From: Candidatus Thorarchaeota archaeon
GTDB taxonomy: Archaea > Asgardarchaeota > Thorarchaeia > Thorarchaeales > Thorarchaeaceae
DNA: 22,740 bases
Assembly: GCA_011364905.1 (NCBI GenBank)
Contig: RDNZ01000044.1
Coordinates: forward strand, 1-22,740
Reading direction: 5' to 3'
Part shown: positions 17,372 to 22,740 of the stretch, piece after piece
Layout of the letters: each line of letters opens with the position of its first letter
Position numbering within the stretch: the first letter of the stretch is position 1
Notes under the pieces: model-generated
Database searches by the model: none
Told to the model about the DNA's origin: nothing
Seen by the model: the letters and a program-made list of their open reading frames with translations, nothing else
Made by a program: the position numbers and the translations under genes

Positions 17372-18190
17372 TTAGAGCTTGCTAGCCAGACCTTCATACT
17401 CCGACTTGATTTTGCGCCCCATATCGGAGCCTCCAAAGTCCCCGGGTGTGATTGTCAAGTCATTACCATCAATCACAGCTTCAAGAACCATGACTCCGGG
17501 CGATTCAATCTTTAGACCCGGCTTTCCACCTCGCTCGAATCGCTCTGTGTACACAAGCTCCGAATTTCGGGTGACCGAAAGCATTAGGTATGCCATCTTC
17601 TTCTCTGCGAGAGACACCGACGGGGCAGGCGGAGGCAAGTCTTCTACGGTCTCAGCGACAAGGATTGGTTTCGGTGTGGGTTCTGGAGCACCAACAATTG
17701 GTTCAGGTTCCGCCTTTGGTTCAGGGGCCTTGACCACTGGCTCCGGTTCTGGCTCTGGAATTATCTTCTTCTTGGGAGCACCAGCAATTGGTTCTTCGAC
17801 TTTTGGCTCTCCCTTGTATGCGAGCACACCATCGTCAAAAGCCCATCTACCTTCCAAGACTCCACGAAACTCTGCAATTCTATTTGCTACATCTTGGTCT
17901 GCATCATCTTTTTCCATCATCTCGACAAAACGATCTGACGCCATACCAATAGTAGTAATTCCCACTTGATGTCCTGATTTCTGTAGACCCCTGGCTATTC
18001 TGAGTGCATGCATTCGTGTTGGCATGTTGACATTACGGCCAACCCAGGCCCAACAAGCGTCATTGTACTCGTCTAGCACAATAATCGCATTGTCACTGTT
18101 CACCAGCGCAGTGTCCAACTTGACAGTGGTTATTTCTCCAGAATCATCTCGCAGCATGAGCATGTACGGTTTTCTTGAAAGGGTCTTCAT
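17372..18190 (-). CDS. Gelsolin-like domain protein with Pro/Glu-rich linker and C-terminal domain of unknown function
   Basis: ATG at 18190 after GGAGG (track start 18277 is unlikely). VKLDTALVNSDNAIIVLD..ACWAWVGRNVN..RMHALRIA matches the gelsolin core. Linker PEPEPEPVVKAPEPKAEPEP...LPPPAP. Confidence 0.7.
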   Translation of the reverse strand: MKTLSRKPYMLMLRDDSGEITTVKLDTALVNSDNAIIVLDEYNDACWAWVGRNVNMPTRMHALRIARGLQKSGHQVGITTIGMASDRFVEMMEKDDADQDVANRIAEFRGVLEGRWAFDDGVLAYKGEPKVEEPIAGAPKKKIIPEPEPEPVVKAPEPKAEPEPIVGAPEPTPKPILVAETVEDLPPPAPSVSLAEKKMAYLMLSVTRNSELVYTERFERGGKPGLKIESPGVMVLEAVIDGNDLTITPGDFGGSDMGRKIKSEYEGLASKL

Positions 18191-18277
18191 AGGAATCTGA
18201 TACCTCCGAAAATGTAATCCCAGTCTTCTCCTGCTCGCACATTGCATAAAAGAAATTCTTGGATGTAAAGAACGCAC

Positions 18278-18544
18278 TTAAGAACCCAAGCTCGTAGAGG
18301 TCATATCTATCTCGCTGTCAATTACAAGAATTGACTGTGTTTCCTCTATACCCTTGATCTTTCGAACTTTCGCCGTGATGATTTCCACTAATGTTTCCAT
18401 ATCGCGGCCCCTCACTTCTGCAACGATGTCATAGGGCCCAAATACTTTGTGTGCCTCTTCTGTGACTGAGAGGGCAATCATGTCCCTGAGGACCGAGTCC
18501 TCTTGTCCCACAGCCGCTTTGATCAGAATGTAGGCTTTTACCAT
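18278..18544 (-). CDS. Stand-alone Lrp/AsnC ligand-binding (RAM) domain protein
   Basis: MVKAYILIK...EAHKVFGPYDIVAEV...KVRKIKGIEETQSILV; no HTH; ATG at 18544. Confidence 0.88.
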   Translation of the reverse strand: MVKAYILIKAAVGQEDSVLRDMIALSVTEEAHKVFGPYDIVAEVRGRDMETLVEIITAKVRKIKGIEETQSILVIDSEIDMTSTSLGS

Positions 18545-18619
18545 ATCTGTCACCCAGAATGACACGGTTTGAGTTTGTTGAACTGATAACTCTTACTCTT
18601 AGTTGAGAAAATAAGTCAC

Positions 18620-18760
18620 AGTCTCGCAAAAATCGTGCAGGTGTGAGAATTGTGGAAATCGCAATTTTTCCAATATTAATTGTATTTATCGCAATATTCT
18701 ATATATAGGAATATTTTCGAATATATGTTGTTAGTTTTGCGATAAAATCGCAGACTATCA
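18620..18760. promoter_or_regulatory. AT-rich divergent control region with inverted repeats and spaced TCGCA motifs
   Basis: TTTATCGCAA (18685-18694) and TTGCGATAAA (18737-18746) form a perfect 10-bp inverted repeat. AATATTC-tatatatag-GAATATT (18693-18715) is a second dyad. Confidence 0.55.
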
Positions 18761-18799
18761 GCGCGAAACATTGCAGATGGTTCTGCAGAGGTGACCGAT

Positions 18800-19054
18800 A
18801 TGGGAAAGATGACTTTGAATACCGTTCCATGCCCTGAATGCAAGGGATCAATTGAAGGAATAGTCATTGAGGAGGACTCAATCACTAATGCCAAGCGGAT
18901 TCCGGTCTTAGTTCCCGCGAAATGTAGCAACGGTCACAATGTGATTCTTTTCGTCGATAGGAAATTCACGGTTCGAGATGTTGAAACAGCTGGAACAGTG
19001 GTTGACGAAGATGGATCAGTAAACAAAGCCATGAAATGGATGGATGGTTTCTAG
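18800..19054 (+). CDS. Small Zn-ribbon-like protein (CxxC...CxxxH)
   Basis: ATG at 18800 after GAGGTGA; CPEC...CSNGHNVILFVDRKFTVRDVE. Confidence 0.8.
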   Translation: MGKMTLNTVPCPECKGSIEGIVIEEDSITNAKRIPVLVPAKCSNGHNVILFVDRKFTVRDVETAGTVVDEDGSVNKAMKWMDGF

Positions 19055-19068
19055 GGGAGGCAGCGAAG

Positions 19069-19458
19069 TTGATTCAAAGTGTGTATCTAGTGAATGAGGG
19101 CGGTGAAACTATCGCCTCAGTACCCATAGGAGAATTCCAATTAGACGAGGCTCTCTTTGGAGGATTCCTATCAGCGATTCAGATGTACAGCAAAAAAATC
19201 TCTGGCAAGAATGTCAGTGAGTTATCTTTGGAGAGCTATCGCATCATCATCTCCAAGGCTGACCGTGTTTTTCTGGTCACCATTCATGATTTGGGTGACA
19301 AGAATGCTGCTGAACTGAACAACAAAATCAGTGATTTGTGTAAGGGCACGCTCGGAGAAGTAGTCACCGATGAGACAATCAAACTGATCAAAGCTGCAGC
19401 CAGCGAGGCGCAGAGTGCAATGAAACGCGCAAACGAATGGGCATCAAAGATGCTGTAG
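19069..19458 (+). CDS. Longin-domain protein
   Basis: TTG at 19069 after GGAGG; IQSVYLVNEGGETI...LDEALFGGFLSAIQMYSKKI...VSELSLESYRIII...VFLVTIHD. Confidence 0.8.
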   Translation: MIQSVYLVNEGGETIASVPIGEFQLDEALFGGFLSAIQMYSKKISGKNVSELSLESYRIIISKADRVFLVTIHDLGDKNAAELNNKISDLCKGTLGEVVTDETIKLIKAAASEAQSAMKRANEWASKML

Positions 19459-19469
19459 GGGTGTAGACA

Positions 19470-20837
19470 ATGCAACTAGTCGTACAATATACGTCAGAAC
19501 TGGTAACTGCAGTTGGCCTTTTTATTGGAGCCATACTGCTAGCCAGGTTTACTTGGAATCGAGTCAAGGACCTCCCTCCTGAGGAGAAACACTTTGGACG
19601 CCCGCTTTGGGTTGCGGTAGGAAGTGTCTTCTTTTTGGGTCTTACCTCATTGGTCAACTTTTGGTATGGATCCGGGATAAGTCAGCTAGAGGTTTATTGG
19701 TATATCACTGCCATTCTTGGTTCAGGACTGCTAATGATATCTGCTTTGATGATTATGGGATCAAGGAGAATGGCCATTATCCCAATCGGCATGATGGCTG
19801 TAATCGCTGTGATTGCCTTTGCTGAAACAGTGATTGGCGCTGGGACTATCCTGGGTGGATTCACCGATTACGCGGTCAACTTCTTTGCATTAGTCCTTTT
19901 TAGCATTCCATTCGCATTGTTTTCATATCTGACATTTAGTACTCGGAGAATCACGAGCTTTGCATTGGCTGTACTCTCACTCACCTACCCTTTGATTCTT
20001 ATCGCGACTGCATTCACAGATCCTTCCATTGTAACTGCAATTCTGGGACTACGTCTATATGGACCTGCGATATTAATTACAGCCCTAGCTCTGCCTAAGT
20101 CGAAGATTGGTGCTGAGCTGATCGCCTATTCATTCACAGTCAGCTCACTGTTATACTTCATGACCTATCTATTGGTGTCTCCATTAGTTGGAGATGCTGC
20201 AATGATGACATCAATCACACTCATTGCGTTGGGAGCGATTCTGTCTATTGGAACCGGTGCATATGCATTTACAAGGTGGAGTCAGAGTAGGAACTCAGCG
20301 ACACTCACACTGGGAACCTTCTTTTTCATTTCGGGTTTCTCCTGGTTGATAGTAGCATTGAACCATGTAGATTTTCTTGGAGGACTTAATGCAGAGTATA
20401 TCGCACTACTACTAGGCCTCATTTCTCCAATGCTTCTTAACTTGAGTTCAGTTGTCGCATTAGACTGGAAAAGAGCTCTACTTCTCCCCCTGCTAATTAT
20501 GGCTGCACCATTCATCATGATGCTTGGAGGATGGACTGCTCAAATCTTGCCAGATGCAATACCAAATCGTGGTATTATAATGGCAATATCTGGCATACTC
20601 CAAACAATACTCCCTCTCGGACTCTATGGCCTACTCTGGTGGAGAATGAGAAAAGCCGGAGCGCCTGGACGGAACAGAGCTCTGTTTCTAGCATTAGGTG
20701 TCGTTTTCCTAATCCTAGGAACCGCAGGTGGAAATGCTGTATCTCTCGTTTCATCAGCATCCATTCTAGCCGCCTTTGGAGTCTGGTGGTTAGGTGTCAC
20801 TGGTCGTGCTGACCAACTACTTGGCACTATGGTCTAA
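19470..20837 (+). CDS. Polytopic membrane protein, ~15 TM, with an apparent internal duplication (7+1+7)
   Basis: About 15 hydrophobic segments with short loops. The halves share patterns: MGSRRMAIIP vs LDWKRALLLP, and IPFALFSYL..STRR vs LPLGLYGLL..RMRK. Confidence 0.85.
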   Translation: MQLVVQYTSELVTAVGLFIGAILLARFTWNRVKDLPPEEKHFGRPLWVAVGSVFFLGLTSLVNFWYGSGISQLEVYWYITAILGSGLLMISALMIMGSRRMAIIPIGMMAVIAVIAFAETVIGAGTILGGFTDYAVNFFALVLFSIPFALFSYLTFSTRRITSFALAVLSLTYPLILIATAFTDPSIVTAILGLRLYGPAILITALALPKSKIGAELIAYSFTVSSLLYFMTYLLVSPLVGDAAMMTSITLIALGAILSIGTGAYAFTRWSQSRNSATLTLGTFFFISGFSWLIVALNHVDFLGGLNAEYIALLLGLISPMLLNLSSVVALDWKRALLLPLLIMAAPFIMMLGGWTAQILPDAIPNRGIIMAISGILQTILPLGLYGLLWWRMRKAGAPGRNRALFLALGVVFLILGTAGGNAVSLVSSASILAAFGVWWLGVTGRADQLLGTMV

Positions 20838-20850
20838 GAGGTGGCCCAAG

Positions 20851-21387
20851 ATGGCAGGGAGATTACCGATCTACAAGACTGTGCTTGTTGGTGAGGGCGG
20901 TGTTGGTAAAACAAGTATCACCCTTCGCTACACAGAGGATCGCTTTGACGATGCAATGAAGATGACCATCGGAGTCAACTTTGCATCCAAAAAGGTGACT
21001 ATTGGCGAAAACAATGTCACCCTTATGCTGTGGGACCTAGGTGGTCAACCAAGATTCCGCGAGGTCATCTCAGACTATTTCAAAGGGGCACGAATTGCCA
21101 TAGCAGTGTACGACGCGACGAGAACCTTCTCACTCCAGCGATTATCTGATTGGCTTGGTAGAGTGAAGGACAATGCTCCCGACTGTCAGATTATCTTCGT
21201 GGGCAACAAGATCGATGAACGCGATGACGGAAGTGGTGTTACTCTCGAGGAGGCCGCCGTGATGGCCCGTGAATACGGTGCTGGATGCATGGAGGTCTCT
21301 GCAAAGACAGGTGAAGGTGTATCTGAGATGTTCGAGGCTGCTGCCGAAATCGCGCTCACAAAACACAATGAACTAGTCAGCAACTAG
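20851..21387 (+). CDS. Rab-like small GTPase (Ras superfamily)
   Basis: ATG at 20851 after GAGGTG. G1 GEGGVGKT, G2 TIG, G3 WDLGGQ, G4 NKID, G5 SAK; RabF-like motifs IGVNF, RFREVI, YFKGA, AVYDAT; no C-terminal prenylation Cys. Confidence 0.93.
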   Translation: MAGRLPIYKTVLVGEGGVGKTSITLRYTEDRFDDAMKMTIGVNFASKKVTIGENNVTLMLWDLGGQPRFREVISDYFKGARIAIAVYDATRTFSLQRLSDWLGRVKDNAPDCQIIFVGNKIDERDDGSGVTLEEAAVMAREYGAGCMEVSAKTGEGVSEMFEAAAEIALTKHNELVSN

Positions 21388-21426
21388 CCCTTACTAGGCA
21401 GTCCTTCTTGGACTGCCACCCCCTCC

Positions 21427-21435
21427 TTGTTTTTT
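21427..21435 (+). terminator. Possible archaeal oligo-T terminator
   Basis: TTGTTTTTT about 40 bp after the GTPase stop codon. Confidence 0.3.
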
Positions 21436-22261: not shown

Positions 22262-22740
22262 TCATAGAAGTCCGCGGTCCTCAAGGACATCTCTTAAGAC
22301 AGCCGGGAAGTCTGTAAAAATGCCGTCCACTTCCATATCTAGTAGTCGCTCCATGTCTGGCTTATTGTTGATTGTCCACACATGGACTGCTATGTCTTTG
22401 TCATGGGCCAGTTTCACAAATTCCGGTGTAACAATTTGAAGTGAACCGCTCCGCTCAGGAACTTGAAACGCCTTGTATGGCACATTGCGCACAAGCAATT
22501 TCATTGCTCCCATTCTAGATCCTATGACAAAGTTACGAATCTCATTGGGATGAGCAGAGGTAGGTATCATAGGAGCTTTCTTTCTGAACCTCTTCAGTTG
22601 CTTCGGATGAAAAGAGGCTATCATAATATTCTCGGTTCTTCGATTCTCTAACAGAATCCGTGCTACTTCATCAGGTGCTTCTTTGAAAGTGTCCTTGATG
22701 TCTAGGTTGAGGATGATGTTTGGGAACCTTTTGAGTACCT
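22262..22740 (-). CDS. Glycerophosphodiester phosphodiesterase (GDPD family), 5' part outside the window
   Basis: The frame is open to the window end: VLKRFPNIILNLDIKD...IMIASFH...VHVWTIN...LLDMEVDGIFTDFP. Confidence 0.9.
   Translation of the reverse strand, partial: VLKRFPNIILNLDIKDTFKEAPDEVARILLENRRTENIMIASFHPKQLKRFRKKAPMIPTSAHPNEIRNFVIGSRMGAMKLLVRNVPYKAFQVPERSGSLQIVTPEFVKLAHDKDIAVHVWTINNKPDMERLLDMEVDGIFTDFPAVLRDVLEDRGLL

Follow-up and report, generated by a model that had tools for sequence, protein, structure and literature searches.

A candidate small-GTPase switch module in Asgard archaea that combines a Rab-like GTPase with longin-fold, zinc-ribbon and tandem seven-helix membrane proteins

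Can a small GTPase of an Asgard archaeon be matched to its likely regulators, and to a membrane partner, from the genes that stand beside it? Eukaryote-like small GTPases and roadblock/longin proteins occur by the dozen in Asgard archaea. Their GTPase genes generally lie outside operons with such regulators, and pairing a GTPase with its GEF or GAP is hard (PMC10933270). The locus described here was found in Candidatus Thorarchaeota archaeon (assembly GCA_011364905.1), within a window that comprises the whole analysed stretch of 22,740 nt (contig RDNZ01000044.1, positions 1-22,740, forward strand). Genes were called from an open reading frame listing combined with direct reading of the sequence, giving the following features:

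18648-18794, + strand: control region with putative promoter function
18648-18668 and 18678-18698, + strand: direct repeats in the control region
18685-18694 and 18737-18746, + strand: arms of a perfect 10-nt inverted repeat in the control region
18700-18709, + strand: TATA-like box in the control region
18736-18754 and 18771-18788, + strand: predicted 5' leader hairpins (fold z -2.0, modest)
18788-18794, + strand: ribosome-binding site of gene 1, GAGGTGA, abutted by the second leader hairpin
18800-19054, + strand: gene 1, zinc-ribbon-like protein, ATG start, 84 aa
19069-19458, + strand: gene 2, longin-fold protein, TTG start, 129 aa
19470-20837, + strand: gene 3, membrane protein with 15 transmembrane helices (15-TM), 455 aa
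20851-21387, + strand: gene 4, Rab-like small GTPase, 178 aa; orthologues begin MAGRLPIYK
21397-21435, + strand: terminator-like element, an 8-bp GC-rich hairpin (21397-21417) followed by T6 (21430-21435)

The original prediction had described four co-directional genes 11-14 bp apart, most of them with a ribosome-binding site, preceded by a structured control region and followed by a T-tract, and each part of this layout was recovered. The gaps measure 14, 11 and 13 bp, and a purine-rich, Shine-Dalgarno-like site precedes all four starts (by direct reading GAGGTGA, GGGAGG, GGGGTG and AGAGGTGG for genes 1 to 4, respectively). An alternative start of the longin gene at ATG 19036 was rejected, as it overlaps the zinc-ribbon gene and is unsupported by the N-termini of orthologues. 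Repeats, TATA-like box and predicted hairpins are all present upstream, and nine orthologous upstream regions have kept the TATA-like block, GCGCAAGAC-GTTGCAG, a TGCAG/CTGCA stem and GAGGTGAC; both the TATA-like box and the hairpin abutting the ribosome-binding site are conserved at these nine loci. The hairpin downstream of the operon folds with -16.7 kcal/mol (z -4.0), a stability equalled by none of 200 shuffled sequences. The bacterial-type terminator scan did not list this element because its T run begins 12 nt past the stem; the consensus patterns for promoters and terminators in such scans are bacterial and uninformative for an archaeal host. A mangrove metatranscriptome library holds one 242-nt contig that matches 19054-19295 exactly, for which DNA carry-over is possible, and the same run gave no RNA cover for the remaining operon.

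Conservation of the gene neighbourhood was assessed in 44 parsed gene clusters, a few of which represent one locus fetched twice. The genes stay together in two main orders: 25 clusters read Zn-longin-TM-GTPase as in the window, 13 read GTPase-Zn-longin-TM, and three carry the GTPase gene in convergent orientation. The remaining three comprise one cluster truncated where its contig ends and a tandem second copy, which was fetched twice and has no zinc-ribbon and GTPase genes of its own. Lack of linkage of the membrane gene would have counted against the original prediction; every readable complete locus shows this gene together with those for the longin, zinc-ribbon and GTPase proteins, and nearly all loci have the zinc-ribbon gene directly 5' of the longin one. 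Metagenomes provide well over 100 instances of the module. Searching by the GTPase subfamily alone returned about 41 loci, about 30 of which also hold the other three genes; subfamily members stand alone at seven orphan loci and at G000:C32. One locus (L059) encodes zinc-ribbon protein, longin protein and GTPase only, and the membrane gene can thus be missing from the neighbourhood. Among the genomes searched, the module is present in Thorarchaeia, in Atabeyarchaeia chromosomes and in one further Asgard family, and in the main family 43 of 85 genomes have it, which marks it as accessory. We found no paper describing this four-gene module.

Thirty loci retrieved with larger flanks share only these four genes; a fifth conserved gene was sought in them and none was found, the recurrent extra open reading frame clusters being antisense shadows of the four. 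Flanking genes for an AsnC-type domain and a GDPD are syntenic among close relatives. A putative gelsolin-like gene, unrecognised by Pfam, lies upstream in 15 loci of the window's gene order; it is not shared by the other gene order or by Atabeyarchaeia. For the four proteins, matrices of pairwise distances correlate with r of 0.70-0.92, highest for the membrane and longin proteins (0.92), values that are inflated by shared ancestry, and the four protein trees agree on most subclades. The longin tree separates the two gene orders with a support of 97, and both module types coexist within single genomes, this one included. Mere inherited synteny of functionally unrelated genes might be argued from the many loci that come from related genomes and from the equally syntenic AsnC-type and GDPD flanks. 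However, only the four genes persist across two rearranged orders, in-genome paralogous copies and three Asgard families while their flanks change, and they are set 11-14 bp apart and include a dedicated GTPase subfamily; we thus disfavour this explanation as highly improbable.

The GTPase is the best defined component. Pfam Ras matches it with 142.1 bits against a cut-off of 21.6 (E 1.5e-41), and the G1-G5 motifs are intact as predicted (GEGGVGKTS, T39, WDLGGQ, NKID, SAK) and invariant across 35 family members; the sequence also contains the catalytic Gln66. Its best solved relatives are Rabs, namely Rab6B (3.7e-33), Ypt6, Rab18, Rab14 and Rab2, with the best E values ranging from 1e-33 to 1e-30, and a Thorarchaeota Rab (7ezb) matches with 2.7e-28. 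Three subfamily copies in this genome score 278-298 bits, the next GTPase scoring 161 bits: the GTPase belongs to a distinct, dedicated subfamily. The claim that it has no prenylation cysteine extends to the family, since none of the 35 members ends in a CAAX, CC or CXC motif. One member has a cysteine five residues from its end, which is not a CAAX box.

For the gene 2 product, the longin label is supported at the level of the fold. Secondary structure assigned by DSSP to its AF2 model (E2-9, E14-19, H27-45, E51-54, E57-64, E67-74, H80-90, H101-128) gives the predicted longin topology, a five-stranded sheet in the order b-b-a-b-b-b-a-a with two C-terminal helices and no N-terminal helix, and in the fold search longin and roadblock tie at the same Z. 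Together, model topology and fold search support a longin fold within the roadblock/longin superfamily. In sequence searches, the window protein has zero Pfam matches at E <= 0.1, and across the 35 family members no Pfam longin model rises above threshold, with Fuz_longin_1 sub-threshold in eight (best E 0.0015) and Robl_LC7 sub-threshold in three, while the family profile returned chance-level rows only from PDB sequences (E >= 0.24). The protein ends in a conserved tail, EWASKML, and in the second gene order it carries an insert of 15-19 aa.

Its neighbour, the gene 1 product, deserves its earlier designation as a Zn protein at the level of motifs. C11, C14, C42 and W80 are invariant in the family alignment and H46 is nearly so, forming a CxxC...Cx3H site followed by a conserved C-terminal tail, KAxKWMDSF, and the protein presumably binds metal through this site. 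All Pfam zinc-ribbon matches are sub-threshold (Zn_ribbon_Brz in 13 and Trm112p in eight of 35 members).

A Rab-like GTPase without a lipid anchor next to a longin-fold protein could also be part of a membrane-identity or targeting device instead of a signalling one, in which the membrane protein serves as a fixed dock that localises the GTPase for the recruitment of cytoskeletal or membrane-remodelling factors. Sec12 for Sar1, and SR-beta with the longin-like SRX domain of SR-alpha, are parallels for such a dock. The closest relatives of the GTPase, Rab6, Ypt6 and Rab18, fit this proposal, as do longin-fold partners of the kind seen in TRAPP, Mon1-Ccz1 and SRX and the putative gelsolin-like gene upstream in the window's gene order. 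That gene is, however, limited to this order and unrecognised by Pfam, genes for coats, SNAREs or ESCRT are not linked to it in the 30 loci with larger flanks, and internal membranes are undocumented in these organisms (PMC10933270), which leaves a fixed dock quite unlikely in our view.

The membrane protein had been described as a double 7TM protein, and its architecture bears this out: the 15 helices form a 7+1+7 internal duplication of two homologous seven-helix bundles (approximately residues 1-211 and 241-449) joined by TM8 as linker helix. In the predicted topology the N-terminus lies outside and the C-terminus inside, both bundles ending inside, as read from alternating K/R-rich loops. 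Conservation is much higher in the predicted cytoplasmic loops than in the outer loops (0.56 vs 0.30, permutation p < 1e-4). The majority of the invariant residues, namely E216, Y220, R269, T278 and G445, are located within or beside cytoplasmic loops, as is the nearly invariant R403, and all lineage-specific indels fall in outer loops. We also searched the cytoplasmic loops for an indel matching the 15-19-aa longin insert, and none was found. The 1 TAG stops reported inside some membrane genes of the second order were dismissed: there the profile match runs past the end of the gene and takes in its own stop codon. The family is small, with 69 cluster representatives among 1.84 billion, and in public records bearing a name both the membrane protein and the longin-fold protein are called hypothetical.

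Each half of the membrane protein models as a GPCR-shaped bundle, whose predicted helices can be superposed, in their order and packing, on the transmembrane domains of solved GPCRs. No Pfam family was found for the 35 members at E <= 1, including 7tm_1/2/3, Frizzled, 7TMR-DISM, HisKA_7TM and rhodopsin, so that these searches reveal no relation to GPCRs at the sequence level. A HisKA_7TM lead from the Atlas scored only 0.85. A soluble domain is absent from the protein, and Pfam gives no kinase match. With Foldseek, the model returned nothing from the PDB at E <= 0.001 (best E 0.2), and the bundle resemblance surfaced only with an exhaustive aligner, its top structural rows all being receptor-type bundles. 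The originally proposed analogy to 7TM-to-G-protein signalling holds for fold resemblance only; a sequence relation to GPCRs is lacking, and instead of a G-alpha the operon encodes a small GTPase of the Ras family.

Seven-helix bundles include pumps and channels, and the membrane protein may instead be the effector of the switch, a transporter or channel of two parallel bundles (compare the 3+1+3 logic of SWEET) whose activity the GTPase gates while the longin and zinc-ribbon proteins regulate the GTPase. Linkage and co-divergence fit this arrangement, the cytoplasmic face is the constrained surface, and transporters and LYCHOS occur among the weak Foldseek rows. Against it stand the absence of any transporter-family match above noise in sequence or fold, the receptor-type bundles that fill the top structural rows, and the lack of a substrate-related gene conserved nearby, and we regard an effector role as unlikely.

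Taken together, we lean towards reading the four genes as one regulatory module, a membrane-associated small-GTPase switch. MglB, TRAPP, Mon1-Ccz1 and Ragulator are other longin/roadblock platforms. Roadblock/longin platforms are described as binding small GTPases in a conserved orientation and acting as GEFs or GAPs (PMC10933270, citing Levine 2013). In the proposed mechanism, the 15-TM protein would reside in the cytoplasmic membrane with both bundles N-out/C-in and its conserved face towards the cytoplasm, and the longin-fold and zinc-ribbon proteins would assemble on or near this face. The longin protein would contact the switch regions of its cognate Rab-like GTPase and set its nucleotide state as GEF or GAP, and the membrane association of the GTPase would depend on the complex because it carries no lipid anchor. 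Candidates for the input side are the bundles' variable outer loops, and the GTP-bound GTPase may act on effectors encoded outside the operon. We infer which proteins touch one another, which way information flows, whether the activity is that of a GEF or a GAP, and what the signal and output are; the suggested roles in binding, ligand sensing, GEF or GAP activity and recruitment draw on the linkage of the genes, on analogy between folds and on the membrane protein's conserved cytoplasmic face. A complex prediction for all four chains, in which the membrane protein served as partner, run without controls, scored 0.28 (mark 0.32) and speaks neither for nor against binding. Overall, the interpretation put forward in the original prediction is partly supported.

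Our best reading of the module is as an analogue of the actinobacterial conservon (CvnA-CvnB-CvnC-CvnD; Mfp operon), with every component drawn from a different family. Both link four genes, which encode a membrane-embedded input protein (a candidate one in the Asgard module), a member of the roadblock/longin superfamily, a small protein and a Ras-superfamily GTPase, and the conservon proteins can form a membrane-associated signalling complex that has been likened to G-protein-coupled regulation (PMC4316618, PMC13343842). Both also occur in several paralogous copies per genome. Whereas CvnA is a HAMP-histidine kinase (HAMP, DHp, HATPase), the Asgard module has a 7+1+7 GPCR-shaped protein without a kinase domain, and in place of the MglB-type roadblock protein CvnB it has a platform protein of predicted longin topology. 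CvnC, a protein without an assigned function, probably belongs to the Pfam family DUF742; the small protein here is a zinc ribbon, and DUF742 is absent among the Pfam families listed for it. CvnD belongs to the MglA family, while the Asgard GTPase is Rab-like with best matches to Rab and Ras, and falls outside the MglA family because it keeps the G3 Asp (WDLGGQ). The hosts differ as well, an actinobacterium in one case and an Asgard archaeon in the other.

The MglA-MglB pair, a bacterial and archaeal Ras-like GTPase with its roadblock GAP, comes without either a membrane protein or a zinc-ribbon partner; in the present module the GTPase is of the Rab/Ras-like branch and the platform protein lacks the roadblock N-terminal helix. 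Compared with eukaryotic longin RabGEFs (TRAPP Bet5/Trs23, Mon1-Ccz1, Fuzzy-Inturned) and Ragulator/LYCHOS-type control, the longin protein is a single domain of 129 aa without TRAPP or tri-longin architecture, the GTPase is unprenylated, and homology to these platforms is not evident in sequence. Another conserved Asgard gene neighbourhood unites a Rab-like GTPase and a member of the roadblock/longin superfamily: an operon in which the GTPase gene stands with genes for a LAMTOR1-like roadblock protein and a DENN-domain protein. It differs by this DENN-domain protein and by having neither a membrane nor a zinc-ribbon protein, and it is reported from most Asgard lineages (bioRxiv 10.1101/2020.10.19.343400), whereas among the genomes searched the module was found only in Thorarchaeia, Atabeyarchaeia and one more family.

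A more far-reaching version of the switch would be a true prokaryotic 7TM-to-small-GTPase pathway, in which an external or membrane signal passes from a tandem GPCR-shaped receptor through a longin/zinc-ribbon adaptor on the receptor's conserved cytoplasmic face to the nucleotide state of the Rab-like GTPase, the seven-helix unit and its longin/GTPase link predating the duplication. A locus from another Asgard lineage (L130), with a single-7TM protein, a longin-like protein and a GTPase as neighbours, hints at a link of this age. We consider the pathway in this full form unlikely.

Among Asgard GTPase genes the module is an exception, in that one dedicated GTPase subfamily stands beside one longin-fold, one zinc-ribbon and one polytopic membrane protein, and their fixed adjacency means that matching proteins can be taken straight to expression and assay as one cognate set. 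It thereby offers a testable switch, its likely regulators and its likely membrane partner in close relatives of eukaryotes. With a GTPase devoid of a lipid anchor, the module may exemplify a pre-eukaryotic means of bringing a Rab-like switch to a membrane. If the membrane protein signals to the GTPase, this would be receptor-to-G-protein logic built from parts unlike those of the eukaryotic and actinobacterial versions, and a true 7TM-to-small-GTPase pathway would bear on the origin of receptor or membrane control of GTPases before eukaryotes.

The source genome, a metagenome-assembled Thorarchaeota one of 3.08 Mb in 95 contigs, is about 81% complete. Four consecutive genes occupy 18800-21387 on the + strand of the window, and the ORF listing combined with reading of the sequence gave intergenic gaps of 14, 11 and 13 bp. 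Judged by the N-termini of orthologues, their start codons are ATG 18800 (zinc-ribbon protein), TTG 19069 (longin-fold protein), ATG 19470 (membrane protein) and ATG 20851 (Rab-like GTPase), each with a purine-rich ribosome-binding-like site on its 5' side. In the intergenic region upstream lie direct repeats, a TATA-like box and an inverted repeat of 10 nt without mismatches, and the leader folds modestly better than shuffled sequences (z -2.0). Nine orthologous upstream regions retain the TATA-like block, the GCGCAAGAC-GTTGCAG block, GAGGTGAC and a TGCAG/CTGCA stem that adjoins the ribosome-binding site and varies in its loop. The last gene is followed by a GC-rich 8-bp hairpin, with z -4.0, and then by a T6 tract. 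The original prediction of co-directional genes 11-14 bp apart, most with a clear ribosome-binding site, with a structured control region in front and a T-tract behind, was therefore right throughout. RNA evidence for the module consists of one short contig of an RNA library.

The neighbours of the module in the window are:

17372-18277, - strand: 301-aa protein, syntenic 5' of the module in 15 loci
18278-18565, - strand: 95-aa protein with an Lrp/AsnC-type ligand-binding domain (Pfam, 1.5e-11)
22262-22738, - strand, running off the window: putative glycerophosphodiester phosphodiesterase gene (our own reading)

The Lrp/AsnC-type protein comprises the ligand-binding domain alone, lacking a helix-turn-helix. 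Its gene is divergent from the operon, with which it shares the control region; 14 loci with the window's gene order keep it there, but the other order and Atabeyarchaeia do not. The 301-aa protein has no Pfam match, and a protein whose N-terminus resembles it by eye is encoded on contig 43 of the window genome (L048:4993-5916, - strand), adjoining a third, partial longin-like gene copy and a putative roadblock protein, so read by eye. Nine loci with the window's order share the phosphodiesterase-like gene 3' of the module, probably as inherited synteny only.

The GTPase matches Pfam Ras with 142 bits, and its closest solved structures are Rab6, Ypt6, Rab18 and Rab14. As predicted, all five G motifs are present, together with the catalytic glutamine, and neither the window GTPase nor its aligned relatives carry a C-terminal prenylation motif. 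Module GTPases form, by profile score, a dedicated subfamily, since the profile of operon-linked GTPases recovers three copies from the window genome at 278-298 bits, and the best of its other Ras-family genes, roughly 20 in number, reaches 161 bits. Besides the window module, this genome holds a second module and an orphan:

G000:C14:46843-48794 (locus L046): second module in the order GTPase, zinc-ribbon, longin, membrane protein; at the end of contig 14, membrane gene cut
G000:C32:17903-18409 (L047:4904-5491, - strand): orphan GTPase of the subfamily, 277 bits, unrelated neighbours; 7 further loci have orphans like it

When 301 genomes of the phylum were searched with the membrane protein, 43 had it, nearly all of one family and frequently as two or three divergent copies. 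In 400 genomes, a profile search placed the module in 43 of 85 genomes of the main family, within Thorarchaeia, in all three of a second, the Atabeyarchaeia, including two closed chromosomes, and in 3 of 19 of a third; two weak matches fell outside these families. Conservation of the four genes among Asgard genomes was borne out by 44 parsed clusters (a few being one locus fetched twice), 41 of which are complete: 25 in the window's order, 13 in the GTPase-first order of the second module and three with a convergent GTPase. The three incomplete clusters comprise one cut by a contig end and a tandem second copy, fetched twice, without its own zinc-ribbon and GTPase genes. About 30 of the roughly 41 loci found via the GTPase subfamily also encode all three partners; seven others hold an orphan GTPase, and a single one has zinc-ribbon, longin and GTPase genes without the membrane gene. 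In genomes labelled Jord-, Loki- or Odin-, the Rab-like genes score lower and none of these partners lies beside them. That the four genes are neighbours merely by chance synteny is effectively excluded, and the data support a functional unit. No fifth gene is common to the 30 loci with larger flanks. The four proteins have correlated distance matrices (r 0.70-0.92, inflated by shared ancestry) and trees with most subclades in common, so the modules duplicated and diverged as units.

Two loci deviate. At L059:2691-4028 the zinc-ribbon, longin and GTPase genes are accompanied by only 136 bp at the expected membrane-gene position, and at L060:1586-3127 the membrane gene is reduced to a 73-codon remnant; either could reflect true loss or an assembly artefact. 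A separate locus is Hermodarchaeota-labelled:

L130:755-3254 (G333:C576, a 3.4-kb contig), mixed strands: single seven-helix protein of 225 codons, adjoined by a 237-aa protein and a Rab-like GTPase (138 bits)

Of the two repeats in the membrane protein, the seven-helix protein matches the second alone (E 1.7e-11), and the 237-aa protein has a weakly longin-like N-terminus (E 6e-5). This single example may represent a simpler form of the linkage.

The membrane protein has no Pfam match among 35 family members, named public records call it "hypothetical", and among 1.84 billion cluster representatives a profile search returned 69 matches only. Family-averaged hydropathy gives 15 helices, and charge bias, with basic loops alternating accordingly, predicts an outside N-terminus and an inside C-terminus. 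The predicted structure, a confident one (pLDDT 87.5, pTM 0.85), was built, like all structures here, on alignments of 28-35 sequences. TM1-7 is homologous to TM9-15, because residues 40-160 match 272-395 at 95-96% probability in a half-versus-half profile comparison; with TM8 as the helix that resets the orientation, the arrangement is 7+1+7. Predicted cytoplasmic loops are far more conserved than outer loops (mean identity 0.56 versus 0.30, permutation p < 1e-4), and every lineage-specific indel lies in outer loops.

In the zinc-ribbon protein C11, C14 and C42 are invariant and H46 nearly so in the family alignment, with weak matches only to zinc-ribbon families. It ends in a conserved KAxKWMDSF tail with invariant W80 (19037-19054), loosely like the conserved EWASKML tail of the longin-fold protein with invariant W124 (19438-19458). 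These tails are a possible docking motif, and one idea is that two tails would serve two homologous membrane bundles.

We found no published description of the module in the literature searched. According to a structural study (PMC10933270), Asgard GTPases generally do not share operons with genes for roadblock or longin proteins, and a conserved Asgard operon of a LAMTOR1-like protein, Rab-like GTPase and DENN protein (bioRxiv 10.1101/2020.10.19.343400) differs in gene content. Among the Asgard-eukaryote families in the accessible part of a 2026 preprint (10.64898/2026.10.28.762692) are GPCR-like structural clusters and '7TM proteins'; we found no mention of this operon there. By logic, the closest system is the conservon of actinobacteria, a membrane histidine kinase, MglB-type roadblock, small protein without assigned function and MglA-family GTPase, reported as a membrane-associated complex and likened to G-protein-coupled regulation (PMC4316618, PMC13343842). 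All four Asgard parts come from different families, and the module is therefore an analogue of the conservon, not a member.

Two other roles for the module are live, namely a reverse flow in which the GTPase gates a transporter-like membrane protein, and docking or identity without a signal. We lean slightly towards signalling from the membrane inwards, in which the variable outer side of the seven-helix bundles would be the likely input and the conserved cytoplasmic face would seat the longin and zinc-ribbon proteins. The longin platform would bind the anchor-less GTPase at the switch regions, setting its nucleotide state, with effectors encoded outside the module.
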